From contig JAUTXM010000392.1 in NCBI GenBank assembly GCA_030838025.1, positions 1 to 43,855 on the forward strand: a DNA stretch of 43,855 nucleotides. Reading direction: 5' to 3'. The notes below the pieces were generated by a model. That model did not search any database, was not told the origin of the DNA, and saw nothing but the letters and a program-made list of their open reading frames with translations. Of the stretch, positions 2 through 21,303 are shown piece after piece. Every line of letters begins with the position of its first letter. Within the stretch, counting starts at the first letter, position 1. This stretch comes from Acidimicrobiaceae bacterium (lineage in GTDB: Bacteria; Actinomycetota; Acidimicrobiia; Acidimicrobiales; Palsa-688). Both the position numbers and the translations under genes were made by a program.

Positions 2-442
2 TTTTATGCCGATCGAATCGCGGAACTCCAGAAGGAGTTCGGGCTGGACCGGCTGCGGGTCTGGTTGCTCGACGACCTCCGAGCCGACCCCGAGGCCACG
101 CTGGCCGATGTCCTGTCCTACCTCGGCGTCAACCAGACGTACCAGTTCGACACCGCGTCCGTGCTCAACCGGGGGAGCGCCCCCAAGAGTCAGGTCCTCC
201 AACATGCGTTACCTCGCCACCAGGCGCGACGGGCAATCACCCGAGCCGTCCCCGGGTCGCTGCTGCGCCCCGCGCGATGGCTCTGGGAGCGAACCCAACG
301 GCCGGCCGACCCCTTGCCGACCGCGGTAGCAACCAGGCTGCGCGCCCTCTACGCGGGCGACATCCGACGTCTCGAAGGGCTCATTCAACGCGACCTCTCA
401 CGCTGGATTGAGCCCCAACCACCTCGAATGAGCACCGGGTGA
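2..442 (+). CDS. sulfotransferase family protein, C-terminal part (5' end outside window)
   Basis: The frame is open from base 2 (FYADRIAELQKEFGLDRLRVWLLDDLRADPEATLADVLSYLGV...). Listed ORF 65..442 is only the first in-window Met. The layout resembles the C-terminal third of PAPS-dependent sulfotransferases, and the gene sits beside other sulfotransferase genes. Confidence 0.55.
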   Translation, partial: FYADRIAELQKEFGLDRLRVWLLDDLRADPEATLADVLSYLGVNQTYQFDTASVLNRGSAPKSQVLQHALPRHQARRAITRAVPGSLLRPARWLWERTQRPADPLPTAVATRLRALYAGDIRRLEGLIQRDLSRWIEPQPPRMSTG

Positions 443-479
443 GTCCGCTGATGCAGCCGGCTCAGGCGGTGGCCTCAGG

Positions 480-1169
480 TCACCCCAGGTCGCGGAAGTT
501 GGGCCACCGTTCGATCTCGAGTTCCGGGAAGTCCGTGATCAGCCGCCGGACGTCATCCTGATAGTCCCGGCGGAGTCCGGCCCGCTCCGACGCTGACAAG
601 GTGACGGCCGGGCGTCGGAGCGCGTTGACGGTGCCCGCGATCGGGCGGGAGACGGGTCTGTCGGCTCCCAGCCCGAGAAACGCGAACGTGCGGTCGAGCA
701 TCAGTCGGGGCTGGTCGGTGCAGCGCTCGAACTGGAGCACCAGGACCTGCTCTCTCGGGAAGTACTGAAGCAGCCGCTCCAGCTGGCGGTGATAGAGGCC
801 GCGCCGAAACGCATCCTTCCATGTCTGGTCCCGGCTGTCGCCCCGGCCAATGTCGTGGCTGAGGCCCGACTCGAAGCGCGCCAACGGGTCACGGAGCATG
901 ACCAGAAGCCGGGCCTGGGGTGCCGCCTCGCGGAGCAGCTTCGGCGTCCACTCGTCGTACATGTACCGCGGCGTCCACTCGCCGCACTGCCGGCCCGGCG
1001 GGCGCCGGAAGTGCTGGTGGTAGCGGTCGATGTCGCCCGATCCGAACGGCTCGTGACCGAAGCGGTCGAAGTAGTGCAGTTCCTTCGACGTCCACCCGAG
1101 GGCGTGAACTCCCGGGTGGGCCTCGATCATTGCGTGCCACCAGGAGGTGCCGGCCCGCTGGACTCCCAC
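480..1169 (-). CDS. PAPS-dependent sulfotransferase (Sulfotransfer_1-like); real start probably upstream of 1169
   Basis: A 5'-PSB-like loop GVQRAGTSWW lies at the extreme N-terminus of the listed ORF, and a 3'-PB-like LRDPLARFES follows. The in-frame upstream sequence reads ...PPDWVGVG, which is the expected first beta-strand, but contains no ATG/GTG/TTG. Confidence 0.8.
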   Translation of the reverse strand: MGVQRAGTSWWHAMIEAHPGVHALGWTSKELHYFDRFGHEPFGSGDIDRYHQHFRRPPGRQCGEWTPRYMYDEWTPKLLREAAPQARLLVMLRDPLARFESGLSHDIGRGDSRDQTWKDAFRRGLYHRQLERLLQYFPREQVLVLQFERCTDQPRLMLDRTFAFLGLGADRPVSRPIAGTVNALRRPAVTLSASERAGLRRDYQDDVRRLITDFPELEIERWPNFRDLG

Positions 1170-1291
1170 CCCGACCCAGTCTGGTGGCGCCCCGGGCCAC
1201 CGTCGCGAGACGAGGGGCGGGGCGGACCGCAGGCGAAAAAGGGATCGGGCCGCTCGGCGCCGAAGCCCCTTCGTGGGCGGGGAATCCGGTC

Positions 1292-2119
1292 TCAGTAAGC
1301 GCCTCGCCGGCTGAGCACGGCCGGGATCGTGCGCAAGAGGATGCCGAGGTCTCGCAGCAGGCTCCAGCGCATGACGTAGGTGAAGTCGATCACGGCCCGC
1401 TCGGGGTACCCGACATGGCTGCGACCCCCGACCTGCCAGGCGCCGGTGATCCCGGGTCGTACCGCCAGATACGCGGGGGTGAGGGCCTCGTACCGGAGCA
1501 ACTCGTCGGGAACCACGGGACGCGGTCCGACCATGCTCATGTGGCCCATGAAGACGTTGAACAGCTGAGGGAGCTCGTCCACGCTGGCCCGGCGCAGCAC
1601 TCGACCGAACGGCGTGATCCGTGGGTCCATGGTGGCTGGCAATTTGAAGTGGTTGGCCTCGTACAGAAGAGCCAGATCACGGTCGCGTTCCAACCACCCG
1701 ACGGACCCGACTTGCATGGTCCGGAACTTCAAGACCTCGAAGAACTCGCCGTGTCGCCCGACCCGCGGTTGGCGGAAGAACACTGGCCCGTCCGACGTCA
1801 TTTTGATCGCCAGTGCGACCGCCAGGAGGACAGGAAACATGATGACGATGGCGAGGGCGCTCAGCACGATGTCGATGGCGCGCTTTACCCGGTAGCGAAT
1901 GGCCGGCAGGGTCAGAGCCAGCTCCATGCCAGGCGCCAGGCGAACGACGCCGGGATGGAACGGCACCTCGTCCAACGCATCGAGGGAGGGGACGCTGTCG
2001 GTCGTCGCCGGGCCACCTCGCGGCTGGCTGCGAACCGAACGCGGCGGCACCAAATCGAACACCCTCCCCATCGACCCTGGTAACAAGGCCTCTCCGCCCT
2101 CAGATCCCATCGCACCCAT
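1292..2119 (-). CDS. initiating polyprenyl-phosphate sugar-1-phosphate transferase (bacterial sugar transferase family, small PGT)
   Basis: Contains KRAIDIVLSALAIVIMFPVLLAVALAI, VLKFRTM, DELPQLFNVFMGHMSMVGPRP and RPGITGAWQV motifs. An alternative shorter start is ATG 1927 (MELALTLPAIRY...). Confidence 0.9.
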   Translation of the reverse strand: MGAMGSEGGEALLPGSMGRVFDLVPPRSVRSQPRGGPATTDSVPSLDALDEVPFHPGVVRLAPGMELALTLPAIRYRVKRAIDIVLSALAIVIMFPVLLAVALAIKMTSDGPVFFRQPRVGRHGEFFEVLKFRTMQVGSVGWLERDRDLALLYEANHFKLPATMDPRITPFGRVLRRASVDELPQLFNVFMGHMSMVGPRPVVPDELLRYEALTPAYLAVRPGITGAWQVGGRSHVGYPERAVIDFTYVMRWSLLRDLGILLRTIPAVLSRRGAY

Positions 2120-2237
2120 CAGGACCGCATCTCCATTGGTCGACTGGGCATACCTTCGCTGCCCTAGGTGAGCCCTTGCCGTGCCCTGGTACTCTAGCCA
2201 GCCTGAGGTCGGGTCCGCTCAGATGATATTCATTCGG

Positions 2238-3263
2238 TCATAATTCGACATTCCGCCCCGCCGCCCGGTAGGCCAGCAGCCACTTGACGAACGCCGCCAA
2301 GCCATCCTCGGCCGTCCACTGAGGCCGAAAGTCGATCATCGCGGCGAGATCAGCCACGTCCGCGTGGGTGACGGGGACGTCACCGGGTATCTCGGGACCG
2401 CGTCGGCGCACCGCGGTCTTGCGTAACAACTGCTCGAGCACCTCGATCAGATGATTGACCGTGAGATTCTCCCCATGGCCGATGTTGTACAGGCGCCACG
2501 GAGCCCGACTGGTTGCCGGATCGGGGTCGCTCGGGGACCAGGTCGCGTCGGGCAACGGCGGTATCGCCGCGATCCGGACGATACCTTCGACGATGTCATC
2601 GACATACGTGAGATCCCGTAGCGCCGAGCCGTCGCCGTTCACCGTGATCGGTGTTCCGTCGAGGATGGCTTGGGCGAAGAGAAAGTAGGCCATGTCGGGG
2701 CGGCCCCATGGTCCGTACACCGTGAAGAAGCGCAGCCCGGTGGTGGGGATCCCAAAGAGGTCGCTGTAACTGTGGGCCATCAACTCGTTGGCCCGCTTGG
2801 TCGCGGCGTACAGCGAGACGGGATGGTCGGCCGGATCGTGGACGCTGAAGGGCAACCGGCTAGTCGATCCGTACACGCTGCTCGACGAGGCGTACAGCAG
2901 GTGAGGCAGGTCGATCGCCCGGGCCGACTCCAATACCGACAAGAACCCGACGAGGTTGTCATGCACATAGGGCGCCGGGTGAGCCAGCGCGTGGCGGATG
3001 CCCGGTTGGGCGGCGAGGTGGACAATCACGTCGGGTCGCACGCTCGAGCACAGGTTTACCGTCGCCTCGAGGTCACACAGGTCGAGCTGGTGAAAGCGGA
3101 ACGCCGCGTTGTCGTCGAGGTCGGCCAGCCGGTCTCGTTTGAACGCGGGGGAGTAGTACCCGTTCAGGTTGTCGATGCCCACCGTCTCAATGCCCTGGCG
3201 CACCAATCGGTGCACCAGATGGGAGCCGACGAAGCCAGCTGCTCCTGTCACGACCCACGTCAT
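2238..3263 (-). CDS. NAD-dependent epimerase, UDP-glucuronate 4-epimerase-like (CapI/LspL-type SDR)
   Basis: MTWVVTGAAGFVGSHL Rossmann motif, ASSSSVYG, YAATKRANELMAHSY (YxxxK), and RFFTVYGPWGRPDMA, which is typical of the UDP-GlcA 4-epimerase subgroup. Confidence 0.8.
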   Translation of the reverse strand: MTWVVTGAAGFVGSHLVHRLVRQGIETVGIDNLNGYYSPAFKRDRLADLDDNAAFRFHQLDLCDLEATVNLCSSVRPDVIVHLAAQPGIRHALAHPAPYVHDNLVGFLSVLESARAIDLPHLLYASSSSVYGSTSRLPFSVHDPADHPVSLYAATKRANELMAHSYSDLFGIPTTGLRFFTVYGPWGRPDMAYFLFAQAILDGTPITVNGDGSALRDLTYVDDIVEGIVRIAAIPPLPDATWSPSDPDPATSRAPWRLYNIGHGENLTVNHLIEVLEQLLRKTAVRRRGPEIPGDVPVTHADVADLAAMIDFRPQWTAEDGLAAFVKWLLAYRAAGRNVEL

Positions 3264-3414: not shown

Positions 3415-3612
3415 ATGGTGTACCTTATGATTCTCCTTGTCATCGTTCTCTGGTTCGTAGTCTCGACGGTGACGGCCCTCGTCATCGGCGGGGTCATCCG
3501 CAAGGCGGGCGGCGGAGACATCGTCGCCCATGCCCCGCCGGCCGCCGGCGCGTCCTCCCCAAGAGCGGTCATCATGCGGTCCGTCGATGACCACAAGCTT
3601 GAGACCGGTTGA
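3415..3612 (+). CDS. hypothetical small single-pass membrane protein
   Basis: Internal ATG of listed ORF 3169..3612 gives MVYLMILLVIVLWFVVSTVTALVIGGVIRKAGGG..., one clear TM helix followed by a polar tail. No family recognised. Confidence 0.3.
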   Translation: MVYLMILLVIVLWFVVSTVTALVIGGVIRKAGGGDIVAHAPPAAGASSPRAVIMRSVDDHKLETG

Positions 3613-3637
3613 CCGGTTGACCGGTTGGCCGGTTTGA
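3605..3637. repeat. four tandem copies of an 8-mer CCGGTTGA (CCGGTTGA CCGGTTGA CCGGTTGG CCGGTTTGA)
   Basis: Read directly from the sequence. The array lies about 110 bp upstream of the GTG start of the Wzz/BY-kinase gene. Each unit contains a TTGACC/TTGGCC hexamer. Confidence 0.9.
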
Positions 3638-3747
3638 CCGCCCGTCCAAGCAGGTCCTTGCCGCCTGGACGCAAACGCGGTCGGGGTTATGCTGCTCGGG
3701 CGGCTCCGTGCGTTCGCCCCACCGTCGCAGAAGGAAGGGACTGAGGC

Positions 3748-5604
3748 GTGGACGCGGCAGAAACACAAACGATCGACATCGGACGCTACCTGCGCATCTT
3801 GTGGGCGAACGCGTGGTTGGTGGTGCTGACGATCGCGGTCCTGGCAGGCGCCGTGTATTACTGGTCCAACGGCCAGCCGAAGGTCTACCAAGCGAGTTCG
3901 CTGGTGCGGGTATTCGATCCCTCGGATCCGACCGTGTCGTCGGGCGGCGTTCACGTCGACCCGATTCGCGAAGTCGACATCCAGGTCCTGTACGCGCAGT
4001 CCCCGGAAGTCGTGGCCGAGTTCAAGCATCGGATGGGTAAGGCGGCGGCGCAGATCACCTCGACCGCCGTGTCCGGCGTGACCACCGCCGACGCCGTCAC
4101 CATCTCGGTGTCCAGTGGAAACCCGAAGCTGGCTCAGTCCGGGGCGGGCACCTATGCCCAGGTGTATGTGGACCGGCAGCGGGCGGCGCTCGCGGCCCGC
4201 TTCGGGAGCCAAGCAGCCACCTTCCGGAGTCAGGCCAAGGATCTGCAGACCCAGATCGCGGGACTCGACAAACAGATTTCGGATCTACAGCCGACCGATG
4301 CCAGCCATGTGGTGTTGCAGGGCGGACGACCGATCGTTGTCCCGGAGTCGGACCAGCTTCGCAACCTGAGCAGCCAGCGCGACGCCCTGGCCTCCAAATA
4401 TGCCGACTTGATCAACCAGGCCGCCCAAGCCGATGTCTCCAGTAGCAACCGCCAGGCAGACATCGACATCGTCCAGCCTGCAGCGCTGCCCAAGACACCT
4501 GCCTCGCCCCTCCCGCTGCGAGATGCCGCGATCGCGGCCCTCGCCGGATTGCTGGTCGGACTCGGACTGGTGGTGTTGCGTACCCGACTGCGTGAACGGG
4601 TGACCACGACGGGCGATTTGGGGGCCGCGGCGCCGGAAATGCCCTTCGTTACCGCAGTTCCGCCGAACCACTCCCGGTTCCGGCGCACGCGATCGCCAAG
4701 CCTCGACCTCATATCTTCCGCTGACGGCCGCTTGGCCGAGTCGTACCGGACGATGCGAGCCGCACTCCGCTTCTCGCAGCTGCCTGAAGATGCCATGGTG
4801 CTGCTGATTACCAGCGCTCGTGCGAGTGAGGGCAAGACGACGACTGCCGCGAACCTGGCGGTCAGCCTGGCTCAGGCGGGCGAGAAGGTCGTCGTTGTGG
4901 ATTGCGATCTGCGCCATTCCAACATCCACGAGCTCTTCCAGATCTCCAACGAACGGGGATTCAGCTCGGTCGTGACCAAAACGTGTTCCCTTCGGGAGGC
5001 AGTTCGTACCGTGAATGTTCCCGGTGGCGCGGTGGACGTGCTGCCCGCGGGTCCGCGAACGACCAACCCGGCTGAACTTCTTCTCAAGTCCGGCACGACC
5101 GAAATCCTCTCGGAGCTGAAGTCCCGCTACCGCTTTGTCATCGTCGACGGCCCACCGACGCTTCCAGTCGCCGACGCGCTCACGCTTTCTCGATCGGTCA
5201 GCGGAGTCCTGCTGGTGGTGCGAGCCGGACGAACCCGAACGGCGGCGCTCCGCCAAGCAAATCAACTCCTGCGTCAATTCGACGCTCCGCTTCAGGGGGC
5301 GGTCCTTGTCGGCGCTCACCATGAGAACACCTACGGCGGCTACTACGACTATCCGGCAAACCTCGGCCCGATGAGGAAGCGCAAGCATGTGAAGCGTCCC
5401 ACGTCGAGTCCTCCCTCGAAGCCCGCCCTCAGCCCCAGCCTGGTGACGGCCGATCACCCCTCGGTGAATGAGGAGAAGCAGTCAGGGAGTGAGGAAAAGC
5501 AGTCAGGGAGCGAGGAGACGCAGTCAGGGAGCGAGGAGACGCAGTCAGGGCACACAGACGGGCCGGACAAGCCCGTTGAGCGTCAGGATCAGGTTCGAGG
5601 ATGA
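3748..5604 (+). CDS. polysaccharide co-polymerase / tyrosine autokinase fusion (Wzz domain + BY-kinase, Wzc-like)
   Basis: GTG start preceded by GGAAGGGA. N-terminal Wzz-type TM (LRILWANAWLVVLTIAVLAGAVYYW), a coiled periplasmic-type region and a second TM (AALAGLLVGLGLVVL). Walker A SEGKTTTAANLA, A' VVVVDCDLR, Walker B FVIVDGPP, and Tyr cluster YGGYYDY. Confidence 0.9.
   Translation: MDAAETQTIDIGRYLRILWANAWLVVLTIAVLAGAVYYWSNGQPKVYQASSLVRVFDPSDPTVSSGGVHVDPIREVDIQVLYAQSPEVVAEFKHRMGKAAAQITSTAVSGVTTADAVTISVSSGNPKLAQSGAGTYAQVYVDRQRAALAARFGSQAATFRSQAKDLQTQIAGLDKQISDLQPTDASHVVLQGGRPIVVPESDQLRNLSSQRDALASKYADLINQAAQADVSSSNRQADIDIVQPAALPKTPASPLPLRDAAIAALAGLLVGLGLVVLRTRLRERVTTTGDLGAAAPEMPFVTAVPPNHSRFRRTRSPSLDLISSADGRLAESYRTMRAALRFSQLPEDAMVLLITSARASEGKTTTAANLAVSLAQAGEKVVVVDCDLRHSNIHELFQISNERGFSSVVTKTCSLREAVRTVNVPGGAVDVLPAGPRTTNPAELLLKSGTTEILSELKSRYRFVIVDGPPTLPVADALTLSRSVSGVLLVVRAGRTRTAALRQANQLLRQFDAPLQGAVLVGAHHENTYGGYYDYPANLGPMRKRKHVKRPTSSPPSKPALSPSLVTADHPSVNEEKQSGSEEKQSGSEETQSGSEETQSGHTDGPDKPVERQDQVRG
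5470..5553 (+). repeat. 4 x 21-bp in-frame tandem repeat (EEKQSGS EEKQSGS EETQSGS EETQSGH) in the kinase C-terminal tail
   Basis: gaggagaagcagtcagggagt / gaggaaaagcagtcagggagc / gaggagacgcagtcagggagc / gaggagacgcagtcagggcac, read directly. Confidence 0.95.
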
Positions 5605-6915
5605 CTGAAAAGTTCCCTGGCAGCTGAACGTGCCGGTCGTATAGAGAACCGACCAGGTCGCTTGGCGCGATTTGTCCTTGGCAAACGCCTGTTGGGAAAC
5701 GCCCACCGTCCACAGACCAGGGCCGGCGGGGCTGCTGTTCTGCGCGGCGTTGCCGGCGCGGACCGATACGTTGGCGATGGTTGAGTTGATGAATGCGCCC
5801 GGTGGCAGCTTGTTGGTTCCGTCGATCGACTCCACGACGCCCGCGGCGCAGCTCACCGCCTGCACGTGCGTCACCGCGACGTCATAGTTCATCTGGGCGT
5901 GCGGCGAGAATGAGACGGCTCGGTTGCAGTTCAATCCTGCGATGTCGTCGGCGCTGACACCTCGGATTTCGGACGCGAAGGTCTTGCCCTGGGAGGCATC
6001 GGTTTCGAAGCGCATCGCGGTCCCACCCTGACTGAAGATGTGCTGAAAGTGCACATTGTGGGCGGCGTTCACCTGGTTCGGGCCGTATCCCTTGGGGCCC
6101 CCGATGTTGTACCAGTTGCTCACTGTTCCGTTGTGCGGGTCGTAGAAGGCAGATCCGTTCGCCGGGGTGTCGAATCGTTCCCGGAGGCCCAATGCCGCCC
6201 GTTGGGTTTGCGGCCACCAGCCGTCTTGGGTCGTAGGTAGGCTGGCCGGCTGGGTGGCATTTTGGATCGAGAAGACGTTCTGAATAAGGAAGTCCGTGAC
6301 GTTGAGCGCCTGCACCCCCGCCTCCAGAACGCTGCCCGCGGTGTCCCCTGGATCCAGATTGAACGTGAAGTCCGAGCTCAACGACCAGCCCGGGAACACG
6401 GGGTCCGCCAGGGACTTCAACCCACCGGTTGAACTTCCGACCCCCGTCAAGGTGACGTTGGACAGCGGGGAACCGCCGGGGCCGTCCCAGACGATGAGGG
6501 CCGCCACCATGCTCGAGGTGTCGACATAGCGGCCGCCCGCCTGTTCCAGCACCGCGGCGGCGTCCACCTCGATGCGGAGATTGGAGCGAAAGGTCAGCCG
6601 GATGAGGCGGTAGGTGCCCGGAGGTACGTAGACGACGGCTTGGGGGGCGCCACTTGGACCGGACAGGTACCGCACCGACGAGGCCACGGCCGCGTCTTCG
6701 GCGCGGAGGAAGGCGGCGGTGTCGTCGCCTGTTCCATCACCGAGGGCACCGTAGGATCGTACGTCGACCGCCCCCGGCGTCGCCCCTGCGATGGCCAGCA
6801 CGGAACGCATCTGCGGGGCGGCCCATCCGGGCCGCGCCTCGGTGGTCGACAGTGCGAGGGCGCAGAACGCCACCAATGCGATGAGTTTGGGCAACAAGTG
6901 GCGGATCCTGGGCAT
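5545..6915 (-). CDS. secreted right-handed beta-helix protein (pectate-lyase superfamily / glycoside-hydrolase-like), paralog 1
   Basis: Listed ORF runs to 7041. Internal ATG 6915 gives a signal peptide MPRIRHLLPKLIALVAFCALALSTTEA. DVRSYGALGDGTGDDTAAF matches the Pectate_lyase_3-type N-terminal motif. Long blocks are shared with 11011..12453 and 19318..21303. Confidence 0.8.
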   Translation of the reverse strand: MPRIRHLLPKLIALVAFCALALSTTEARPGWAAPQMRSVLAIAGATPGAVDVRSYGALGDGTGDDTAAFLRAEDAAVASSVRYLSGPSGAPQAVVYVPPGTYRLIRLTFRSNLRIEVDAAAVLEQAGGRYVDTSSMVAALIVWDGPGGSPLSNVTLTGVGSSTGGLKSLADPVFPGWSLSSDFTFNLDPGDTAGSVLEAGVQALNVTDFLIQNVFSIQNATQPASLPTTQDGWWPQTQRAALGLRERFDTPANGSAFYDPHNGTVSNWYNIGGPKGYGPNQVNAAHNVHFQHIFSQGGTAMRFETDASQGKTFASEIRGVSADDIAGLNCNRAVSFSPHAQMNYDVAVTHVQAVSCAAGVVESIDGTNKLPPGAFINSTIANVSVRAGNAAQNSSPAGPGLWTVGVSQQAFAKDKSRQATWSVLYTTGTFSCQGTFQSSSNLILTLNGLVRPVCVP

Positions 6916-13548: not shown

Positions 13549-14411
13549 CCATGACGTACCAGCCACGGCGCAGTCAGGGTGCCGATCAGTCCTCGCTCGA
13601 ACCGGCTGAGCTCATTTTTCCAGCTCATGTCCTCGATCAGCATCGTCGTGAGCGCAGGATTCGGTCCGCGCGGCGTGTGGACGGCCGGAAGCTGGAACGG
13701 GCCTGAGGCCAACTCCACCTGCGGTAGGCCCAGCAGGCGACAGACCCCAGCCATGGTGGCACTCGGGTCTGCGACGAAGTCCTCATAACGCACACGCAGC
13801 AGGTGCTCGGGATCGAACTGCTCGGATCGGGTGTGCCGCATGACCCAACTGGCCGCCAGCATGGTGGCGTCGAGGCTCCTCCTCGCGGGTGACGACGGCG
13901 ACCGTCGCCGCAGTTGGGATGCCACAACGCCTCGAGCGTCTCGCACGACGTGCACGTACGATGCCTCGACGCCCGTTACGTGGGCCAAGAAGGCGCCGTC
14001 TGCGGGAAGCTTCGAGTTGTCGATGACCACGTCGACCCCATATGCCTCGGCCAGACCGTGGTAGGTCGCAGCCATAGCTCCGGCGTACCCGGTGAACGAG
14101 AGGTGCCCATCGTGCGGTCTTCGCATCGCCCGACTGGTACGCCACGAGCCCTCGACTGGGACGACTTCTTCCTGCCACGCCGAGACGGATGCCGGGTCGA
14201 TTCCCGCGGCCCGGACGCGACGTAGGACAACCGACCAGACGGGGCAGTCGACGAGAAGTTCACCGCAGCCGCACGTCCGGTCGGGGCCGACGCCGAATTC
14301 CCAGAGGCGGCGTACCTCCCCGGCGTACACCGCCCCTGGGACGAGGCCCAAGACGCGGCCGACGATGGTCGTCCCGCCCCGTTGGGTTCCCAGGATATAC
14401 AGCACCTTCAC
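13527..14411 (-). CDS. sulfotransferase family protein (Sulfotransfer_3-like) with Cys motif, paralog of 12559..13548
   Basis: YILGTQRGGTTIV, VRDARGVVAS and CGCGELLVDCPVW. Its 3' end overlaps the convergent paralog by 22 bp. Confidence 0.8.
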   Translation of the reverse strand: MKVLYILGTQRGGTTIVGRVLGLVPGAVYAGEVRRLWEFGVGPDRTCGCGELLVDCPVWSVVLRRVRAAGIDPASVSAWQEEVVPVEGSWRTSRAMRRPHDGHLSFTGYAGAMAATYHGLAEAYGVDVVIDNSKLPADGAFLAHVTGVEASYVHVVRDARGVVASQLRRRSPSSPARRSLDATMLAASWVMRHTRSEQFDPEHLLRVRYEDFVADPSATMAGVCRLLGLPQVELASGPFQLPAVHTPRGPNPALTTMLIEDMSWKNELSRFERGLIGTLTAPWLVRHGYLKRNR

Positions 14412-14451: not shown

Positions 14452-15384
14452 TCAACGTGCTCGTTCGGCTCGTACCCACTCGGCGGTTGCCCGGAGGCCC
14501 TGTTCGAGCGGTGTGTCGAACCGGACGCCCAGCGACTCGGCCGCGGTTGCGTCTCCATGCCAATGAAGGGGATCACCGGGCCGGGCGGGACCGGGGAACA
14601 CGATTGGAATGTCGGTGCCCAAGGCGTCGACCACGGCCGACGCCAGTTCGGCGACTCCGACCGGACGTCCGGCCGCAAGATTGTAGACCTCACCTTCGGC
14701 CGGGGCGTACTGGGCCAGGTGGACGAACCCGCGCGCCGCATCAGCCACGTACACGAAGTCCCGGGTTGCCTCAGGGGAGCCGAGAACGGTCAACGGGTTT
14801 TCTCCGGACAGCGCCTTGGAGATGAGGTCGTACACGACCTGTTTGCGCTGACCGGGGCCATAGAGCGAGAACATGCGAATGGCAATCGCGCGCACCGAAT
14901 GGACACGGGAATAAAACGCGAGATAATGCTCGGCAGCCAGCTTGGAGACACCATACGGCGAAATGGGATTTAAGGGATGGTCCTCGTTCATTGGAAGGAG
15001 GACCGCCTCGCCGTATACCGCGGCTGATGACGCCAACACAACCAGCGGTGGGGGGGAACAGCGACGCGCCGCCTCGAACACCGAAATCGTAGTCGCCACG
15101 TTTTTCTGGAGGTCGGTGACAGGATCCTCCACCGACGGTGGGACGTAGGCCGCGGTGGCGAGGTGGAATACCACATCAATACTACGGGAGGACATCAACG
15201 AAGCAAGGTCCAATGTGCGGACGTCGGCGACGATCAGGTCAGCCGAGTCTTGGGGCGACGGGTGTCCACCTGACAGATCATCGACGACCGTTGTCGTGAG
15301 TCCCGCCTCATGGAGTTCCGCGACGAGCCAGGTTCCCAAGAACCCCGCTCCGCCGAGCACCAAGGCATGCTGAAGGTGGCGCAT
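14452..15384 (-). CDS. NAD-dependent epimerase/dehydratase (SDR)
   Basis: Internal ATG 15384 gives MRHLQHALVLGGAGFLGTWLV (GxxGxxG). ASSAAVYG and YGVSKLAAEHY (YxxxK) are present. The start shares one base with the upstream stop (TGATG). Confidence 0.85.
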   Translation of the reverse strand: MRHLQHALVLGGAGFLGTWLVAELHEAGLTTTVVDDLSGGHPSPQDSADLIVADVRTLDLASLMSSRSIDVVFHLATAAYVPPSVEDPVTDLQKNVATTISVFEAARRCSPPPLVVLASSAAVYGEAVLLPMNEDHPLNPISPYGVSKLAAEHYLAFYSRVHSVRAIAIRMFSLYGPGQRKQVVYDLISKALSGENPLTVLGSPEATRDFVYVADAARGFVHLAQYAPAEGEVYNLAAGRPVGVAELASAVVDALGTDIPIVFPGPARPGDPLHWHGDATAAESLGVRFDTPLEQGLRATAEWVRAERAR

Positions 15385-16493
15385 CAGGTGGTCCAGCCGT
15401 TTTCCACGAGTATTTTCCCGAAGGCGACGACAATGTGGTCCCAGTCGAGCTCTGGTGCCGCGGCCAGAGCATTGGCGGAGTAGTGGGACCACGAGCCCAG
15501 AACCTCGTCGACGGCAGTCGCCAGCGCCTCCACGGTCGGATCGGCAACGACGCCGATCCCGAATTGCTCAACAACGTTGCGCGTGCCATTGCCAGGATCG
15601 GAGGTCGTAACCACTGGCAATCCGGAGGCCATGGCCTCGGCGACGGCTAGAGGGAACCCCTCCCGTTGGCTGGGCAAGACGAGGACCGCGGCGTGGCCCA
15701 GCAGGGAGATCTTGGCCCGATCATCAATGTGACCGGTGATGTCCACGGCGGCGCCGTCCGTCGGAGGCAATTGCGAGCGAGCGGCATCGATCTCCGTTCG
15801 CGCCGGACCGTCGCCGGCGATCGTGAGCCGGCCCCGATACCCGCGGGCGCGGAGCACCCCAAAGGCGGCGACGAGGAGTGGTACCCGCTTGTGGGGAAAC
15901 AGGCGCCCCACATACAGGATCCCCTGCCTCTCACGCTCGGGCGCACTCAAGTAGTTGGAGATAGTGACACCACTCGAAAGGGAGAACACCGGGCGTCCCG
16001 ACGCCGACTCGATCTGCTCGGCCACGGCCGTACTGACTCCCATGTTCAACGCCGTCAGCCGGGGAAACCAACGCTCGAAGCGACCGTAGACCGGCCCGCC
16101 TCTGACCTCACACCAGTCGATCAGGCCTCGACGACGTGCTCGCCGAGGAGCGAAGAGCACATGGCTGAACGGCCATTGACCGAAGATGTGGAGGTCGAAC
16201 TCCCGGTGGCGCAGCGCCTGGCGGACGTCCCATCCGTAGCGCAAGATGGCGGCCACGTTTCGGGGCATGCCGGGTACGATCGATCGCCGGTAGTCAACGA
16301 TGATCGGCTGCCGGTGGACCCCGATGCCTCCTTCCAGCGCATAGGAGACCATGGCCCGCTGATGGCCGATGCAGTAGACGTCGACCTCGTGGCCCGCCTT
16401 CACGAGCGCCGCCGCCAGCTCGGCGAAGCGGGCTTCGACGCCACCCACGCTCGGCGGGTATAACTCGGTGAACATTCCAATTCGCATTGGCAC
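15384..16493 (-). CDS. glycosyltransferase family 4
   Basis: MRIGMFTELYPPSVGGVEARFAELA N-terminus and PSQREGFPLAVAEAMASGLPVV C-terminal GT4 motif. Confidence 0.85.
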   Translation of the reverse strand: MPMRIGMFTELYPPSVGGVEARFAELAAALVKAGHEVDVYCIGHQRAMVSYALEGGIGVHRQPIIVDYRRSIVPGMPRNVAAILRYGWDVRQALRHREFDLHIFGQWPFSHVLFAPRRARRRGLIDWCEVRGGPVYGRFERWFPRLTALNMGVSTAVAEQIESASGRPVFSLSSGVTISNYLSAPERERQGILYVGRLFPHKRVPLLVAAFGVLRARGYRGRLTIAGDGPARTEIDAARSQLPPTDGAAVDITGHIDDRAKISLLGHAAVLVLPSQREGFPLAVAEAMASGLPVVTTSDPGNGTRNVVEQFGIGVVADPTVEALATAVDEVLGSWSHYSANALAAAPELDWDHIVVAFGKILVENGWTT

Positions 16494-17408
16494 TCAGGCG
16501 TCCGCCAGCCAGGTGGGTAACCGGTCATACCCGTTGATCGTCAACTCATCCCGTAGCTGCTTGTTTGCGTCGCGATACAGGTCGTCGAGCTGAAGACGGA
16601 TTTCAGTATCGAGCAGCTCACTGCGGGCGCCGGCTGAGTTAATGCGGTAGTAGATATCCGAGACGAGTTCCTTGCTCCTCGGGTACCGCTTTAAGCGCTC
16701 TCTGGCGCGGTTGCCATATGAGTTCGCGATCTGCTGCAGCTTTGCCGACCGGTGGTTGATCGTGGGGTTGCGCTCGGAGAAATCGAACCCCCCGGCGGGT
16801 TCGGCGTCCAAGTCGAGCCAGGAAAGGAGCTCGCTGACAACCGCGGCAGGGTCGGTCGTCAGATGCTCGAAGAACACAATTTTCGATCGGGATCCGACCG
16901 CCGAGATCCATTCGGGAAGGTAGTCGATATAGAACCCGGTGGAGAGAGTCCTGAACCGGCGGCCCTCTTCTTTAAGGTCTCCACCCGTCTTTCGAAGTTC
17001 GAGGCACCGGTCCAGGAATGTCTGCGCCGACATGTCTTTGTCCAGGAGAAGCTTGCTCTTCATGTACGTGAAGTCGGACCAGAACCGGTCAACAGGATTG
17101 CGGAGGCTGACGACGTAGCGCGGCCGGCCGAGCAACGCTTCGGTGGCCTCGAACAACCGCGGGCCGCCGTACCAGTAGTTCGGGCTCGCTTCGAGCACAT
17201 ACCGTTCGTCGCGGCAGTGGCGGAAGTACCGTTCGTAGGTCGAGATCGGCTCCAGGTGGGCGTCGGGGTAGACGAGGCGCGAGAAGTACTCGGTCTCCTT
17301 CAGCGTGGATCCGCAGATCTGCGGATGCTGCGTCAAGTAGGAGAAGAGCGAGGTTGTTCCGGCCTTGGTCACTCCAATGATCAACAAATTCGGGAGTCGG
17401 ATGCTCAT
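16494..17408 (-). CDS. PAPS-dependent sulfotransferase (Sulfotransfer_1 type)
   Basis: PNLLIIGVTKAGTTSL (5'-PSB) and LRNPVDRFWSDF (3'-PB). The gene abuts the downstream GT4 start with no gap. Confidence 0.9.
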   Translation of the reverse strand: MSIRLPNLLIIGVTKAGTTSLFSYLTQHPQICGSTLKETEYFSRLVYPDAHLEPISTYERYFRHCRDERYVLEASPNYWYGGPRLFEATEALLGRPRYVVSLRNPVDRFWSDFTYMKSKLLLDKDMSAQTFLDRCLELRKTGGDLKEEGRRFRTLSTGFYIDYLPEWISAVGSRSKIVFFEHLTTDPAAVVSELLSWLDLDAEPAGGFDFSERNPTINHRSAKLQQIANSYGNRARERLKRYPRSKELVSDIYYRINSAGARSELLDTEIRLQLDDLYRDANKQLRDELTINGYDRLPTWLADA

Positions 17409-17420: not shown

Positions 17421-18734
17421 TTAACTCCCAGGTTCCCAGGGCCCGTCGAACTCGGATGCGGCCGTTTCCCCCCTAACAGCATCGGGCAATCGTAATCTAC
17501 CCGGCACGGGTGCATTGTCCCCCGGGGCGGCCGTCGGGCCCATGGGTGTTCTCGCCCGAGCCTGAGCGGGCTCGTCGATCGTGCCCGCTAGGCGGTCCAA
17601 CAGCGCCAGCCACGCCGCGGCCACGGTGTCGAAGGTGTGGCGCTGGGCGACGAACGCCCGCCCGCGTTCGCCGTACGCCGTCCGTTCTTCCGGAGGGAGC
17701 GACGCCAGCCGTACCATTCCGCTCGCCAGCGCGATCGGATCCTGTGGTTGGACGAGCAGGCCGGTTTGTCCGTCGTCGACCAGTTCGGCGGTACCGCCGA
17801 CTCGGGTGGCGACAACCGGCCGCCCGGCCGCCATGGCCTCCATCACGACGTTGGGCAAACCCTCCCACGCCGATGACTGCACCAAGGCGTCACAAGCGGC
17901 CAGCAGCTCGGGGACATCGTTTCTGATGCCAAGGAATCGAACCGCGGCACCCAACCCCAGGTCCGAAGCTTGGGCGTCAAGTTCCGCGAGCAGTCGCCCG
18001 CCACCTGCGATCCACAGGACCGCGTCTGGCCGGCCTCGCCGCTCTTGCCGGTAGCGGGAGAACGCCTTGAGCAACGTCGGGAGGTCCTTCTGTGGTTCCA
18101 ACCGGGCAACGGTGAGCCACACGAATGTCGACGGTCCGACGTCGAGGTCGGCGCGGACACGGTGGCGCTCGGTCGCGGCGCGGCGAAAGATGCTGGGGTC
18201 CAACCCGTTGGGAACGACCTGCAGGCGGCCACGGGGGACGATTCTGCGGTGGATCAGGCTCTCGGCGACGATGGCTGAGTTGGTCGTGGTGAGGGTGGCC
18301 AGCCGGTCGGTCGCCCGCAGGACCAGTTCGCGATGGCGACCACCGAGGCGTTCACTGCGAACGGAGGAAACCACCACGGGCACTCGCGCCAGGCGCCCCC
18401 CTACCCGGGACACCACGTTGGCCTGGTACAGGAAGCTGAGCACGATATCGGGCTGCCATTGCCGGAGGACCCGGTTGGCGAACGCGATGTAGCTCAGCGC
18501 CCGGAGTCGGGAACGATTCGGCGCATGGGCGACTGGGATGCCGAGGGCCGCGACCTCGTCGGCGTAGGCCCACGTGGGTAGGAGCGAGAGGATACCGACC
18601 TCGTCACCTCGGGCCACCAGCCGAGTTGCGAGCCGCACCAGCTGGGCTTCCGCGCCACCGACCATGAGGTGATTGGTGGCCAGCACGATACGGCGGGGCC
18701 GCCGCGGCTCGGGTGGGCCGTCTGCCGTCACCAT
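17421..18734 (-). CDS. glycosyltransferase family 4
   Basis: RIVLATNHLMVGGAEAQLVRLA and SSAWEGLPNVVMEAMAAGRPVVATRVGG. An Ala/Pro-rich C-terminal extension of about 60 aa follows. Confidence 0.85.
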   Translation of the reverse strand: MVTADGPPEPRRPRRIVLATNHLMVGGAEAQLVRLATRLVARGDEVGILSLLPTWAYADEVAALGIPVAHAPNRSRLRALSYIAFANRVLRQWQPDIVLSFLYQANVVSRVGGRLARVPVVVSSVRSERLGGRHRELVLRATDRLATLTTTNSAIVAESLIHRRIVPRGRLQVVPNGLDPSIFRRAATERHRVRADLDVGPSTFVWLTVARLEPQKDLPTLLKAFSRYRQERRGRPDAVLWIAGGGRLLAELDAQASDLGLGAAVRFLGIRNDVPELLAACDALVQSSAWEGLPNVVMEAMAAGRPVVATRVGGTAELVDDGQTGLLVQPQDPIALASGMVRLASLPPEERTAYGERGRAFVAQRHTFDTVAAAWLALLDRLAGTIDEPAQARARTPMGPTAAPGDNAPVPGRLRLPDAVRGETAASEFDGPWEPGS

Positions 18735-18812
18735 GGACGATAGAATACGAGACGGTCACTCCGAGCCGGCGAAGGCCGAAGGTGCTGTCGTCAGCGATCT
18801 CCCGCTACGAGG

Positions 18813-19196
18813 TCAGGAGGGTTCGGGAACGTTGTACGATGACGTGTTGCCCTTGCAGTCGAGGATCTGCACACGGGTCGGGTCGCTATTGCTGGGGTAG
18901 CTGAAACCCACCCTGTCAGTCGTCGGAGCGGTGCAGCTGAAGTGGAGCACCTTCACGACCGCTCCGGTCTGCTTGTCGGTCACACGGATCCGGGCGATCC
19001 CGCCGTTGTCGGTGGCGGTGCAGTGGACCTGTCCTGTGCTCACCGATGAGTTGCAGTTGAGTGACTGATTCGGGTTCGGAACCAACGCCCCGGCCGGTAC
19101 CGCCGACGCGAACGCAACGGTCATAATGCTCACAGCGAAGAAAACAGCCAATCTTCTAACCACGATCCCCCTCGTTTCATTCATTGAGTGTGACAC
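18813..19196 (-). CDS. hypothetical small secreted protein (4 Cys)
   Basis: Signal-like N-terminus RRLAVFFAVSIMTVAFASAVPAGA. The mature part is about 90 aa with 4 Cys. The flanks are locally AT-richer. No family recognised. Confidence 0.45.
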   Translation of the reverse strand: MSHSMNETRGIVVRRLAVFFAVSIMTVAFASAVPAGALVPNPNQSLNCNSSVSTGQVHCTATDNGGIARIRVTDKQTGAVVKVLHFSCTAPTTDRVGFSYPSNSDPTRVQILDCKGNTSSYNVPEPS

Positions 19197-19317
19197 TATT
19201 TACAAGTGCGAGTCGAAGTATAGGCCCTGAAATCGCCCTGAGACAGGTCCATTTGGATAAAGCTGCCATTTACCCCTCGGAGTCTAATGACGGTGGCGCA
19301 CGTCACGACTCGGTGGG

Positions 19318-21303
19318 CTATCGGGCTGTCGTCACCGGCGCCGGGCCACACGCGGGCGAGTTCCCGGTCGCCGACGAAGCTTGGACGAGGTAGTAGTAGG
19401 TGGTATTCGGTGTCAGGCCACTGTCGGCGAATCGCGGTTTCGCGGGACTACCAACGAGATAAAATGGCCCGCTGGCAGCGTTGGCCCGCAAGACGAGGTA
19501 GCCCGTGGCTCGGGCGGCCTTGTTCCAGTTGAGCTGAACCCGCGTGCTCGAGACGACAGTGACGACCAAACCGGTCGGAGCATCTGGCGGCGGTATGCCG
19601 GTTGCGATCACGGCGTTCGAGGGCGACGATTCGGCGCCACTTCCGACCGCGTTGGTCGCGTGCACGGTGAACACGTACGTGGTCCCGGCCTGCAGATGAG
19701 GGACGACGAGCGGGCTTGTGGTCCCTGTCACCGCAATCCTTCCGGGGCTCGATGTGACGGTATAGCCGGTGACGGGACTCCCCCCGTCATCGAGTGCCGG
19801 AGAGAAGGACACGGTCGCTTGGGCTAAGCGAACCGTGGCGATGCCCATCGGAGGAGCGCTGGGCACCTTGGGGTTCGCGATCGCCACGGCACAGGCCGGC
19901 TGTACCACTCCGACTGTCGTCTTCAGGGCATCGGAGGGCCATAGGAACATGCCGTTGCAGCTCACGGTGCTGGCCGAGTACGTCACGGCCCAGCTGTCCT
20001 GGCTCTCCCGGCCGAAGGCCTGGAACGAAGCTCCAGAGCTCCAAAGACCCTTCTGGTCGAGATTCGGGTCCTGGGCATGGGTGCCGCCAAGAACGGTCAC
20101 GTTGGAGATCGTGCTGTTGATGAAGCTCCCGCGTCTGTCGGCGGGAATTCCCTCGTCGATGGCCTCCACGACTCCCTGGTAACAGGATGAAGCCTGCACG
20201 TGGGAGACGTGCACGTCGATGTTGGTTTGAAAATGGGGGGCAAACGCGACGGCACGGTTGCAGTTCACCGCGGCCACATCGTCAGCGAGGACGGAACGGA
20301 CCTCGGAGCCGAACTTCACCTGGTTGGAGTTGTCGGTCTCGATCCGCAGCGCACTGCCGCCTTGCGTGAAGATATGGCTCAGAGAAATGTTATGGGCCGA
20401 GTTGACCTGATTGGGCCCATACCCCCTCGGGCTGTGCACGTTGTACCAGTTGGCAATTGTGCCGTTGTGGGGGTCATAGAACTGGGACTTGTCCACCGGG
20501 GAGTCGCTACGTGCTCGTAGTTCGAGTGCGGCCTTGCGGGAGCTCGGCCACCAGCCGGCGTTAGTCGTGGGGCTTACGGTCGGTTGGAAATCGTTCTGTA
20601 TCGAGAACACATTCGTAATCAGAAAACCGTCGACGTTCATGGCCATGACGCCGGCGACCAGGTTGTTGGCATTGGTGGCCTGTGGGTCGAGGTTGAAAGT
20701 GAAGCTGTTGGCGATCGACCATCCTGGAGTCACTGGGTCGGCCACGGACTTCGCACCGCCTGTCGCACTGCCGACACCTGTGAGGGAGACATTCCTGAGC
20801 GGTGCACCGGGCAGGCCGTCCCACAGGATGAGGCTCGGGCCAGGCGAGGAATACCCCGGCGGAGACGTAGCGCCCCTGCCACCAGCCTGTTCCAACAACG
20901 CCGCGGCGTCGACCTCCATCCGCATGTTGTTCGGGAAGGTCAGATTGAGTAGGCGATATGTGCCCGCGGGAACGTAGACGACACCCTGTGCCGCCCCACT
21001 CGGCCCATTGGCATACCGCACGCGTCCTGCTTGGTTGGCCGCGGCCATGGCGGCCGCGAACGCCGCGGTGTCGTCTCCCGTACCGGTGCCGAGTGCTCCG
21101 AAGTCACGGACGTTGGCGGCGCCGGTCGTCGGCGCGGTCGCCGGCACCGCCGACGAAACCGACGAAACCGACGGGAGTGATGGTGCTGCGACAGCGGCGG
21201 AGAGAGACGAAGCCGCGAGCGTGCCCGTCGTGACGGCGCACAACACCGCGAACACGACGGCGCGACACTGGACGCGCCAATGGCTCACACTCAGGCGGCG
21301 CAT
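19318..21303 (-). CDS. secreted beta-helix protein (pectate-lyase superfamily), paralog 3, with two C-terminal fibronectin type III domains
   Basis: Signal-like N-terminus and NVRDFGALGDGTGDDTAAF. The core is colinear with paralogs 1 and 2. The C-terminus has two FN3-like modules (...GGSPVTGYTVTS...TTYVFTVHATNAVG... and ...LNWNKAARATGYLVLR...NTTYYYLVQA...). Confidence 0.85.
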   Translation of the reverse strand: MRRLSVSHWRVQCRAVVFAVLCAVTTGTLAASSLSAAVAAPSLPSVSSVSSAVPATAPTTGAANVRDFGALGTGTGDDTAAFAAAMAAANQAGRVRYANGPSGAAQGVVYVPAGTYRLLNLTFPNNMRMEVDAAALLEQAGGRGATSPPGYSSPGPSLILWDGLPGAPLRNVSLTGVGSATGGAKSVADPVTPGWSIANSFTFNLDPQATNANNLVAGVMAMNVDGFLITNVFSIQNDFQPTVSPTTNAGWWPSSRKAALELRARSDSPVDKSQFYDPHNGTIANWYNVHSPRGYGPNQVNSAHNISLSHIFTQGGSALRIETDNSNQVKFGSEVRSVLADDVAAVNCNRAVAFAPHFQTNIDVHVSHVQASSCYQGVVEAIDEGIPADRRGSFINSTISNVTVLGGTHAQDPNLDQKGLWSSGASFQAFGRESQDSWAVTYSASTVSCNGMFLWPSDALKTTVGVVQPACAVAIANPKVPSAPPMGIATVRLAQATVSFSPALDDGGSPVTGYTVTSSPGRIAVTGTTSPLVVPHLQAGTTYVFTVHATNAVGSGAESSPSNAVIATGIPPPDAPTGLVVTVVSSTRVQLNWNKAARATGYLVLRANAASGPFYLVGSPAKPRFADSGLTPNTTYYYLVQASSATGNSPACGPAPVTTAR

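Follow-up and report, generated by a model that had tools for sequence, protein, structure and literature searches.

Gene content and extent of the locus

The DNA analyzed here is a stretch of 43,855 nucleotides from an Acidimicrobiaceae bacterium (contig JAUTXM010000392.1 of GenBank assembly GCA_030838025.1), which is referred to as the window throughout. From position 2 to 22491, it carries five sulfotransferase genes (ST-A to ST-E), which are interleaved with the genes of a Wzx/Wzy-type polysaccharide assembly system and with three genes for secreted β-helix proteins resembling the ι-carrageenases of family GH82 (GH82L1 to GH82L3). In our view, this region likely directs the Wzx/Wzy-dependent synthesis of an extracellular or capsular heteropolysaccharide that is multiply sulfated, in an uncultured member of the Acidimicrobiales. 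Such a locus would be a rare non-cyanobacterial candidate for the synthesis of a densely sulfated, heparin- or carrageenan-like polymer.

Real genes were picked by their GC content at the third codon position (GC3) and then translated, and the open reading frames (ORFs) were assigned to families by Pfam and NCBIfam scans, with the curated gathering score as the Pfam cut-off. A preliminary description of the same DNA had listed ORFs for sulfotransferases, a phosphoglycosyltransferase (PGT), GT4 glycosyltransferases, Wzx, Wzy and a Wzz/BY-kinase protein. These ORFs were present at the positions given there, and the profile searches placed them in the expected families. Overlooked had been the three β-helix genes, a methyltransferase gene, a second 4-epimerase gene, and the locus border near 22.4 kb.

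Proteins identical to those of the window were found on metagenome contigs only, and none of these contigs reaches beyond the left end of the window. The nearest genome is the metagenome-assembled genome (MAG) MFD01213.bin.1.189, where the locus is fully syntenic on a 346-kb contig (CAVTDW010000008.1) and every locus gene has an ortholog with 80–93% amino-acid identity. The nearest named relatives are MAGs of Acidimicrobiales/Actinomycetota, in agreement with the actinobacterial origin assumed beforehand. That the locus might continue upstream of base 1 had been suggested as well, and it does so in the relative, albeit only by the missing half of ST-A. There, the locus stops with the complete ST-A gene, which is followed by a two-component system (OmpR-type response regulator and histidine kinase) and then by yidD-yidC-jag, and no cys genes are present next to ST-A on this contig. 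On the right side, the nucleotide identity to the relative is 82–85% across 2–22338 and 92–96% across 22535–31534. This step between 22338 and 22535 (from 82% to 93%) sets the right border of the locus after the gene of an S-adenosylmethionine-dependent methyltransferase (21490–22491, minus strand; Pfam Methyltransf_23/11), near 22.4 kb. The methyltransferase gene is the last one in the diverged block and is probably still part of the locus.

When 14 locus genes were compared with their orthologs in the related MAG, all of them gave dN/dS values of 0.09 to 0.20, and this purifying selection indicates that the locus is functional. The dS values of the locus genes lie between 0.42 and 0.75, compared with 0.13 for the flanking mscS. 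Judged by these values, the locus appears to evolve or to be exchanged faster than the backbone, as many surface-polysaccharide loci do, and it has the appearance of a surface-polysaccharide island that diverges quickly or is exchanged. The GC content amounts to 62–68% in the left 22 kb of the window and reaches up to 74% at the right end; for the locus itself it is 62–67%, compared with 69–74% in the right part of the window. A scan for promoter and terminator consensus sequences was uninformative, as it returned fewer matches than shuffled sequence.

Sulfotransferases

For four of the five sulfotransferases, the scores with Pfam Sulfotransfer_1 and/or Sulfotransfer_3 exceed the gathering thresholds (E-values of 1e-9 to 1e-15). 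ST-B (480–1232, minus strand; 480–1169 if read from the first canonical start) is similar to heparan-sulfate 3-O-sulfotransferases and matches Sulfotransfer_1/3, and ST-E (16494–17408, minus strand; Sulfotransfer_1, 2e-10) is similar to heparan-sulfate N-/3-O-sulfotransferases. The two Sulfotransfer_3-type genes, ST-C (12559–13548, plus strand) and ST-D (13527–14411, minus strand), are convergent and overlap by 22 bp. ST-C matches Sulfotransfer_3 at 1.8e-9 and Sulfotransfer_1 at 2e-5, both above the cut-off, and ST-D matches Sulfotransfer_3 at 1.9e-15. The fifth gene, ST-A, is represented by its 3' end (146 codons, 2–442, plus strand), as the 5' half lies outside the window, and this fragment alone has no Pfam match. 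It is 81% identical to residues 146–284 of a 286-residue protein in the nearest relative (L010:10535-11395(-)). This full-length ST-A matches Sulfotransfer_1 and Sulfotransfer_3 above the cut-off and aligns end to end with a bacterial sulfotransferase structure, entry 3rnl of the Protein Data Bank (PDB; E = 1e-31). With regards to the motifs, Pfam matches and 3rnl alignment of this ortholog, it can be concluded that the locus contains five sulfotransferase genes. The number given in the preliminary description thus holds, and so does its claim that all four complete proteins carry both motifs for binding 3'-phosphoadenosine-5'-phosphosulfate (PAPS).

The 5'-phosphosulfate-binding (5'-PSB) loop G-x-x-K/R-x-G-[ST]-[ST] reads GVPKAGTTSL in the ST-A ortholog, GVQRAGTSWW in ST-B, GNGRSGSTIL in ST-C, GTQRGGTTIV in ST-D and GVTKAGTTSL in ST-E, with Arg in place of the usual Lys in ST-B, ST-C, and ST-D. 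The 3'-phosphate-binding (3'-PB) motif R-[DN]-[PSA]-x-x-x-x-x-S is found as LLRDPSDRAYS, MLRDPLARFES, LVRDSRAVAYS, VVRDARGVVAS and LRNPVDRFWS, respectively. The best solved relatives of ST-A, ST-B, and ST-E are among the animal heparan-sulfate sulfotransferases, namely the sulfotransferase domain of NDST1 (2e-13 for ST-E) and 3-OST-5/3A1 (2e-9 for ST-B). KELHYFD of ST-B aligns with the catalytic-Glu motif EIHFFD of 3-OST-5, and KETEYF of ST-E and DEINFL of ST-A align with the corresponding segment of NDST1/3rnl; in ST-E, KAGTTSL, KETEYF, and LRNPVDRFWS all line up with NDST1 motifs. ST-C and ST-D match the sulfotransferase domain of a polyketide synthase structure (4gox) weakly and gave no informative alignment of a catalytic base. 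Mutual identity is 22–26% among ST-A, ST-B, and ST-E and 30% between ST-C and ST-D, and an alignment between the two groups is hardly possible, so that the five sulfotransferases are not recent duplicates. A hydrophobic segment is present in none of the five, unlike in the GH82-like proteins, Wzx, Wzy, and the co-polymerase. The sulfotransferases should therefore act in the cytoplasm, the site of PAPS synthesis.

Ahead of the first canonical ST-B start (GTG, 1169), the frame is free of stop codons over more than 140 codons and contains no ATG, GTG or TTG either (1169–1600, minus strand). A conserved N-terminal extension, RSAPPLVSRRWPGAPPDWVGVGVQ..., matches homologs that start exactly at a CTG of the window (1232–1230), which suggests that the CTG at 1232 is used; otherwise, the protein would have to do without its first β-strand. 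ST-C is intact and 81% conserved in the relative, with a GC3 of 0.69, below that of its neighbors, and dN/dS is 0.20 for ST-C and 0.16 for ST-D. Public gene calls on identical JGI contigs skip ST-C and call a 140-residue antisense ORF instead (L001 13843-14265; L002 6293-6715).

GH82-like proteins

Three further genes, interspersed among the biosynthetic genes, encode paralogous secreted proteins with 49–57% mutual identity. GH82L1 (5545–6915, minus strand; 456 residues) has an N-terminal hydrophobic signal and matches the ι-carrageenase structures 1h80/3lmw at 3e-15. GH82L2 (11011–12273, minus strand) has a hydrophobic N-terminus and retains all invariant residues of the catalytic region; a 420-residue ortholog is called in L002/L006. 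GH82L3 (19318–21303, minus strand) combines a signal-like N-terminus and a match to 1h80 (3.5e-14) with two C-terminal fibronectin type III domains (Pfam fn3 twice).

Pfam gives only a generic N-terminal Pect-lyase_RHGA_epim match for these proteins. A profile built from 38 family members and searched against the PDB found the GH82 ι-carrageenase CgiA (1h80/3lmw) at 4e-25, with the next match at 1e-6. The AlphaFold2 model of GH82L1 is a right-handed parallel β-helix (pLDDT 89.9, pTM 0.88), and a Foldseek search with this model returned 1h80/1ktw/3lmw (E of approximately 1e-17, TM-score 0.63–0.68) ahead of the next fold (4e-8, TM-score 0.31). The Pfam name would suggest C5-epimerases or pectate lyases, which we rejected, as AlgE4/AlgE6, polygalacturonases, and RbmB match at least 10 orders of magnitude worse than GH82.

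The CgiA motifs G-Y-G-x-x-Q, R-x-E-x-D, and P-H are conserved in all three paralogs of the window (the first in the form GYGPNQ). Q222, E245, D247, and H281 of CgiA align with Q281, E304, D306, and H339 of the 456-residue protein, if an offset of 27 between chain and precursor numbering is assumed. In CgiA, the proton is donated by Glu245, and Asp247 acts as the general base (PMC13514251). Strict conservation within GH82 also applies to the G-Y-G Tyr and to the Arg that precedes the catalytic Glu, which contact substrate sulfates at subsites -1 and +1 (PMC3669377). Among the 38 members of the profile, the Gly, Gln, Arg, Glu, Asp, and His of the GH82 motifs are invariant (38 of 38). The family is small, with 780 clusters at E ≤ 1e-3 and 82 at E ≤ 1e-30 among 1.84 billion representatives searched, and all named close members come from Acidimicrobiales or Actinomycetota MAGs. 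The three predicted secreted GH82-like hydrolases in the locus lend support to a sulfated polysaccharide as an independent line of evidence. It is unlikely that ι-carrageenan itself is their substrate.

Polysaccharide assembly and sugar supply

The priming polyprenyl-phosphate hexose-1-phosphate transferase is encoded by the PGT gene at 1292–2119 (minus strand; Bac_transf 1e-58, NCBIfam EPS_sugtrans/WbaP C-terminal domain) and is of the small type with one hydrophobic segment. Three GT4 glycosyltransferases were confirmed: GT4a (7038–8108, minus strand), GT4b (15384–16493, minus strand), and GT4c (17421–18734, minus strand), all of which match Pfam Glycos_transf_1 (1e-36 for GT4c) and Glyco_transf_4. 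The ORF previously listed for the first of them (7038–8528) runs into wzx, so that its true start lies near 8108; a 356-residue ortholog is called in L002/L006. The Wzx-type flippase (8117–9634, minus strand) has at least seven hydrophobic segments and matches Polysacc_synt, MurJ, Polysacc_synt_3, and MatE; its exact start is uncertain, with orthologs called at 396–482 residues. The Wzy-type polymerase (9714–10988, plus strand) belongs to the Wzy_C/O-antigen-ligase superfamily (Wzy_C, 8e-22) and has eight hydrophobic segments.

The polysaccharide co-polymerase is fused to a BY-kinase (3748–5604, plus strand; Pfam Wzz, GNVR, and AAA_31; two transmembrane segments) and scores 147 bits with TIGR01007, for which the cut-off is 108. 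Walker A (SEGKTT at 357), A' (VVVVDCDLR at 381), and B (FVIVDGPP at 463) are followed by a Tyr cluster (YGGYYDY at 529). Beyond this cluster, the C-terminal tail consists of an EEKQSGS/EETQSGS repeat encoded by a 21-nt tandem repeat (3.9 copies, 5470–5550), and the 3' part of the gene overlaps the convergent 3' end of GH82L1 by 60 bp. No cognate BY-kinase phosphatase of the LMW-PTP or PHP type was found among the scanned window ORFs, the only phosphatases being a PP2C enzyme (30749–31909) and an IMPase-family protein. Upstream of the kinase gene lies a single-pass membrane ORF of 61 residues without family assignment (3427–3612, plus strand; hydrophobic residues 1–25), for which the relative has a called gene of equal length and position (L010 7344-7529). 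At its stop codon begins a repeat of the 8-nt unit GACCGGTT, which contains the palindrome ACCGGT and occurs in 4.6 copies (3603–3640) in the divergent region before the BY-kinase gene. As a conserved operator the repeat was rejected, since it is absent from all 23 related loci searched.

Sugar supply is represented by two short-chain dehydrogenase/reductase (SDR) genes. SDR1 (2238–3263, minus strand) is a putative nucleotide-sugar 4-epimerase of the UDP-glucuronate/UDP-GlcNAcA type, with PDB matches to 5u4q (7e-105; depositor name 'dTDP-glucose 4,6-dehydratase') and to 6zl6/6zla (3e-47), which we take to be the UDP-GlcA 4-epimerase of B. cereus, and with a full-length NCBIfam match to TviC that stays below the cut-off. 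SDR2 (14452–15384, minus strand) is a GalE/PelX-like UDP-hexose or UDP-HexNAc 4-epimerase; GalE is its best NCBIfam family, with a score below the cut-off, and its PDB matches 6wjb/6wj9 (3e-40) are PelX, a UDP-GlcNAc C4-epimerase (bioRxiv 10.1101/2020.05.26.111013). Uronate-type 4-epimerases, as named in the preliminary description, are probably the closest relatives of SDR1, but the locus has two SDR genes and not the single one listed. A secreted protein of 127 residues with a hydrophobic N-terminus (18813–19196, minus strand) has no Pfam or NCBIfam match. Its orthologs adjoin locus genes in L006 (84% identity), L007 (41%), and L013 (54%); in the distant loci L007 and L013, the neighbors are GH82-like or glycosyltransferase genes.

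Outside the locus, a PP2C phosphatase gene (30749–31909), two Ser/Thr protein kinase genes, and a glutamine synthetase gene follow one another at 30749–33833 (plus strand). This group lies 8 kb from the locus, with no evidence that ties it to the BY-kinase system. At the right end, in DNA with 73–74% GC, there are three consecutive large ORFs without Pfam match (38293–41397, 41410–42729, and 42736–43671, all on the minus strand; 1034, 439, and 311 residues).

Recurrence in related genomes

With the GH82-like profile, 34 loci were retrieved from species-representative genomes and JGI metagenomes. Beyond the window, the gene set recurs in at least seven Acidimicrobiales loci. Nine loci of close relatives (L006/L010, L007, L013, L014, L015, L017, L023, L024, and L025) join one to three GH82-like genes with one to six sulfotransferase genes, and in eight of these nine, Wzx/Wzy/PGT/GT4 genes are linked as well. 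In L007 (Acidimicrobiales MAG GCA_035546775.1), orthologs of all five sulfotransferase types with 40–56% identity and further sulfotransferases share a rearranged cluster with the PGT, the three GT4s, Wzy, an SDR, an ortholog of the small secreted protein, and one GH82-like gene. In L013, L014, L015, L017, L023, and L025, two to four sulfotransferase genes occur with GH82-like, Wzx/Wzy, and PGT genes, and on the 3.4-kb contig of L024, ST-A stands alone between two GH82-like genes. The MAG MFD04212.bin.2.9 carries both arrangements on a 3.1-Mb contig, with one linked GH82-like pair (L017) and one solitary copy (L016).

Proposed pathway and alternative explanations

From the gene identities, motifs, topology, fold, synteny, and purifying selection described above, we infer the substrates, step order, sugar identities, sulfation stoichiometry, and hydrolase role in the following pathway. 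Two 4-epimerases would supply galacto-configured precursors, probably UDP-GalA from UDP-GlcA and, in addition, UDP-Gal or UDP-GalNAc. The small PGT would prime undecaprenyl phosphate, and the three GT4s would complete a repeat of approximately four sugars, a length suggested by the gene count (PGT plus three GT4s). At the cytoplasmic face of the membrane, the five divergent PAPS-type sulfotransferases (three heparan-sulfate-sulfotransferase-like and two of the Sulfotransfer_3 type) would sulfate the lipid-linked repeat, which the methyltransferase probably decorates as well. Wzx would then flip the sulfated repeat, and Wzy would polymerize it under the control of the fused co-polymerase/BY-kinase. 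Outside the membrane, the three secreted GH82-like endo-hydrolases may cut or trim the sulfated chain, with chain-length control, release or matrix remodeling as conceivable roles. A Wzx/Wzy-dependent, multiply sulfated polysaccharide had already been proposed in the preliminary description, and everything that could be tested in silico agrees with this predicted product. A more specific version of the proposal, namely a galactan- or galacturonan-type exopolymer with approximately one or more sulfates per sugar, for which the GH82 fold serves as a built-in processing glycanase of the biosynthetic pathway, is, in our view, less likely than not.

Several observations weigh against a multiply sulfated polysaccharide as the product. 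The organism is known from metagenomes only, and the product is predicted from genes alone. No gene for APS kinase or ATP sulfurylase and no clear phosphatase for 3'-phosphoadenosine 5'-phosphate (PAP) was found, either by profile among all major window ORFs or by a motif scan of the window and 23 loci (373 kb in total) for signatures of APS kinase, CysD, and CysQ. Many actinobacteria assimilate sulfate through adenosine 5'-phosphosulfate (APS), without PAPS synthesis. The uronic-acid component is putative, as no UDP-glucose dehydrogenase was found in the window; the acidic or uronic nature of the product would follow from one epimerase-like SDR. With the scans of the window ORFs, the earlier statement that cysDNC, UDP-glucose dehydrogenase, and a BY-kinase phosphatase are missing from the window was borne out. 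ST-C and ST-D are only weakly similar to any solved sulfotransferase, and no canonical start codon is available for the conserved N-terminus of ST-B. Overall identity between the GH82-like proteins and CgiA is only about 19%, the catalytic turns alone being alignable at the sequence level, and the sulfate-contacting Tyr is present in 18 of the 38 family members and replaced by Phe in the rest. Approximately 57 residues of CgiA (chain 277–343) have no counterpart in the profile alignment, where about 10 family residues stand opposite. This is presumably where the lid of CgiA lies (the C-terminal accessory 'domain A', connected with processivity), and the GH82-like proteins probably lack it. Seven stand-alone GH82-like copies (L012, L016, L019–L022, and L027), mostly of the fn3-bearing GH82L3 type or on short contigs, have no sulfotransferase gene within 10 kb or the available flanks. 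Apart from this, an IMPase-family gene approximately 2 kb from the locus (24526–25350, minus strand) was considered as a CysQ-type PAP phosphatase and rejected, as it scored 229 bits with HisN (cut-off 275) and 92 bits with CysQ.

In a different explanation, an ordinary acidic exopolysaccharide (EPS) is exported, and the sulfotransferases either act on a protein, lipid or small metabolite or idle for want of PAPS. PAPS-synthesis genes are indeed not linked to the sulfotransferases, ST-C and ST-D are closer to the sulfotransferase domain of 4gox than to carbohydrate enzymes, and lipid or lipo-oligosaccharide acceptors are known for mycobacterial and rhizobial sulfotransferases (cited in PMC8205485). 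However, the five divergent genes are interleaved with GT4, SDR, and Wzx/Wzy genes and translationally abut them, the association of sulfotransferase and polysaccharide genes is kept across genomes with orthologs only 40–56% identical, and no lipid or polyketide genes are found in the locus. Moreover, ST-A, ST-B, and ST-E are nearest to glycan sulfotransferases, the sulfotransferases are under purifying selection, and the co-located hydrolases conserve sulfate-binding residues, so that we regard an unsulfated polymer as quite improbable. Similarly improbable is that the three β-helix proteins have nothing to do with the product and serve instead in foraging on exogenous sulfated galactans, as adhesins without catalytic function or in a surface layer. 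The stand-alone family members would fit such a role, as would the fn3 domains of GH82L3, which occur in many surface proteins, and the second-best fold match, the β-helix adhesin PfbA. Against it stand the catalytic E-x-D, Q, and H, which do not vary in any of the 38 members, and the one to three copies that are embedded between biosynthetic genes in at least nine loci. Sulfatase, transporter, and sugar-catabolic genes do not accompany them. EPS loci also commonly encode a cognate glycanase, as in the cases of Psl, Pel, cellulose, alginate, and VPS, which likewise counts against unrelated β-helix proteins.

A third explanation leaves glycan synthesis and sulfation as proposed and concerns the last step. 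The Wzy_C protein could be a ligase or O-oligosaccharyltransferase, which would place short sulfated glycans on surface proteins or the cell wall. The Wzy_C superfamily does take in O-antigen ligases and O-oligosaccharyltransferases of the PglL/TfpO type, and among the NCBIfam models, the protein at 9714–10988 scores best with 'putative O-glycosylation ligase' (72 bits) and with TfpM (36 bits). Both scores remain far below the cut-offs, which counts against a ligase. Wzx weakly matches an 'O-glycosylation flippase' model, and an LCP-type attachment enzyme and a second Wzy_C protein are both absent. On the other hand, the conserved co-polymerase/BY-kinase has intact Walker motifs and a Tyr cluster, and such proteins work with polymerases; three endo-hydrolase-like enzymes fit a polymer better as well. 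Short protein- or wall-bound glycans are therefore unlikely in our view, if somewhat less so than the two preceding alternatives, and we retain a polymerized, multiply sulfated heteropolysaccharide as the preferred interpretation of the locus.

Significance

Heparin, chondroitin sulfate, and carrageenan are valuable polysaccharides that are still harvested from animals and seaweeds, and few bacterial routes exist. The locus and its relatives define a conserved and compact module in a widespread uncultured actinobacterial order, consisting of one primer, three GT4s, five sulfotransferases, two epimerases, and hydrolases. If active, this module would provide five new carbohydrate sulfotransferase specificities, together with endo-hydrolases that are presumably specific for the sulfated product and could be used as analytical and tailoring enzymes. 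In addition, a GH82-like gene beside multiple sulfotransferase genes could then serve as a genetic marker for producers of sulfated matrices in soils and sludges, where sulfated EPS is detected chemically and rarely assigned to organisms. Should approximately one or more sulfates per sugar be attained, the density would rival that of carrageenans and heparin; we know of no bacterial polysaccharide with such a degree of sulfation. To our knowledge, the GH82 fold has so far been encountered only as a marine carrageenan-degrading enzyme. If the proposed role in biosynthesis is true, 'carrageenases' would have relatives, or even their origin, in the sulfated-EPS metabolism of terrestrial bacteria.

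Comparison with known systems

Sulfated bacterial polysaccharides are still described by most authors as essentially cyanobacterial (PMC13390465, PMC8205485). A close counterpart is synechan of Synechocystis sp. PCC 6803, whose xss cluster likewise depends on Wzx, Wzy, and a polysaccharide co-polymerase and has sulfotransferase genes among its glycosyltransferase genes (PMC8205485). According to the accepted model, the lipid-linked repeat of synechan is sulfated before it is flipped, and the listed xss cluster is, like the locus described here, without PAPS-synthesis genes (PMC8205485). The two systems differ in their gene ratios, as xss has two sulfotransferases and eight glycosyltransferases for two sulfates per eight sugars (PMC8205485), compared with five sulfotransferases and four transferases here. 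Beyond xss, our locus has three GH82-like hydrolases, two epimerases, and a methyltransferase. With regards to the XssS/XssR/XssQ set, no STAND or two-component genes occur inside 1–22.5 kb, and no XssQ-like gene was seen beside ST-A of the relative. Unlike in the synechan system, no OPX protein is expected in an actinobacterium of the Gram-positive type. Synechan has been validated chemically, whereas the product of the locus is predicted from its genes.

Chemically proven sulfated capsular polysaccharides are also available from two marine Gammaproteobacteria, Vibrio sp. KMM 8419 (PMC11641403) and Cobetia marina KMM 1449 (PMC11766843), where a sulfotransferase gene lies beside glycosyltransferase genes, as in the locus. 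Each of these polymers has one sulfotransferase, compared with five here, and the Vibrio locus is ABC-transporter dependent and has cysNDC (PMC11641403), in contrast to a Wzx/Wzy system without cys genes. Within the actinobacteria, wps-1 of Actinoplanes missouriensis (PMC13390465, published in 2026) combines Wzx/Wzy/Wzz with two sulfotransferase families, a methyltransferase, and a glycoside hydrolase, and for its product, too, a sulfated polysaccharide is predicted and not proven (PMC13390465). The wps-1 cluster encodes two sulfotransferases, a GH26 hydrolase, and a protein-kinase-like protein, compared with five sulfotransferases and three GH82-like enzymes, and it comes from a cultured Micromonosporales strain with knock-out phenotypes in sporangium formation, whereas our host is an uncultured member of the Acidimicrobiales.

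The single enzymes can be compared as well. ST-A, ST-B, and ST-E are 22–30% identical to animal NDST1 and 3-OST-1/3/5, with which they share two fold-defining motifs, the 5'-PSB loop and the 3'-PB motif R-[DN]-P-x-x-R-x-x-S, and a putative catalytic Glu in E-x-[HE]-[FY]-F. The animal heparan-sulfate enzymes are Golgi-lumenal and modify the polymer, while the bacterial proteins are predicted to be soluble and cytoplasmic and presumably use a lipid-linked oligosaccharide as acceptor. GH82L1 to GH82L3 share with the ι-carrageenases CgiA of Alteromonas fortis (1h80/1ktw/3lmw) and CgiA_Ce the right-handed β-helix, the proton donor, the base, the Gln and His helpers, and the sulfate-contacting Tyr and Arg. 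CgiA genes lie in catabolic loci of marine bacteria, whereas the GH82-like genes lie in a biosynthetic locus of terrestrial-type Actinomycetota. Our literature search found no relevant paper that ties GH82 to a biosynthetic locus or Acidimicrobiia to sulfotransferases. Since the synechan, Vibrio/Cobetia, and wps-1 clusters and that of Pontiella, a further known sulfotransferase-bearing polysaccharide cluster, have already been described, the locus is not a new kind of system. What is new is the sulfotransferase-rich module, its conservation across an uncultured actinobacterial order, and its coupling to GH82-like hydrolases.

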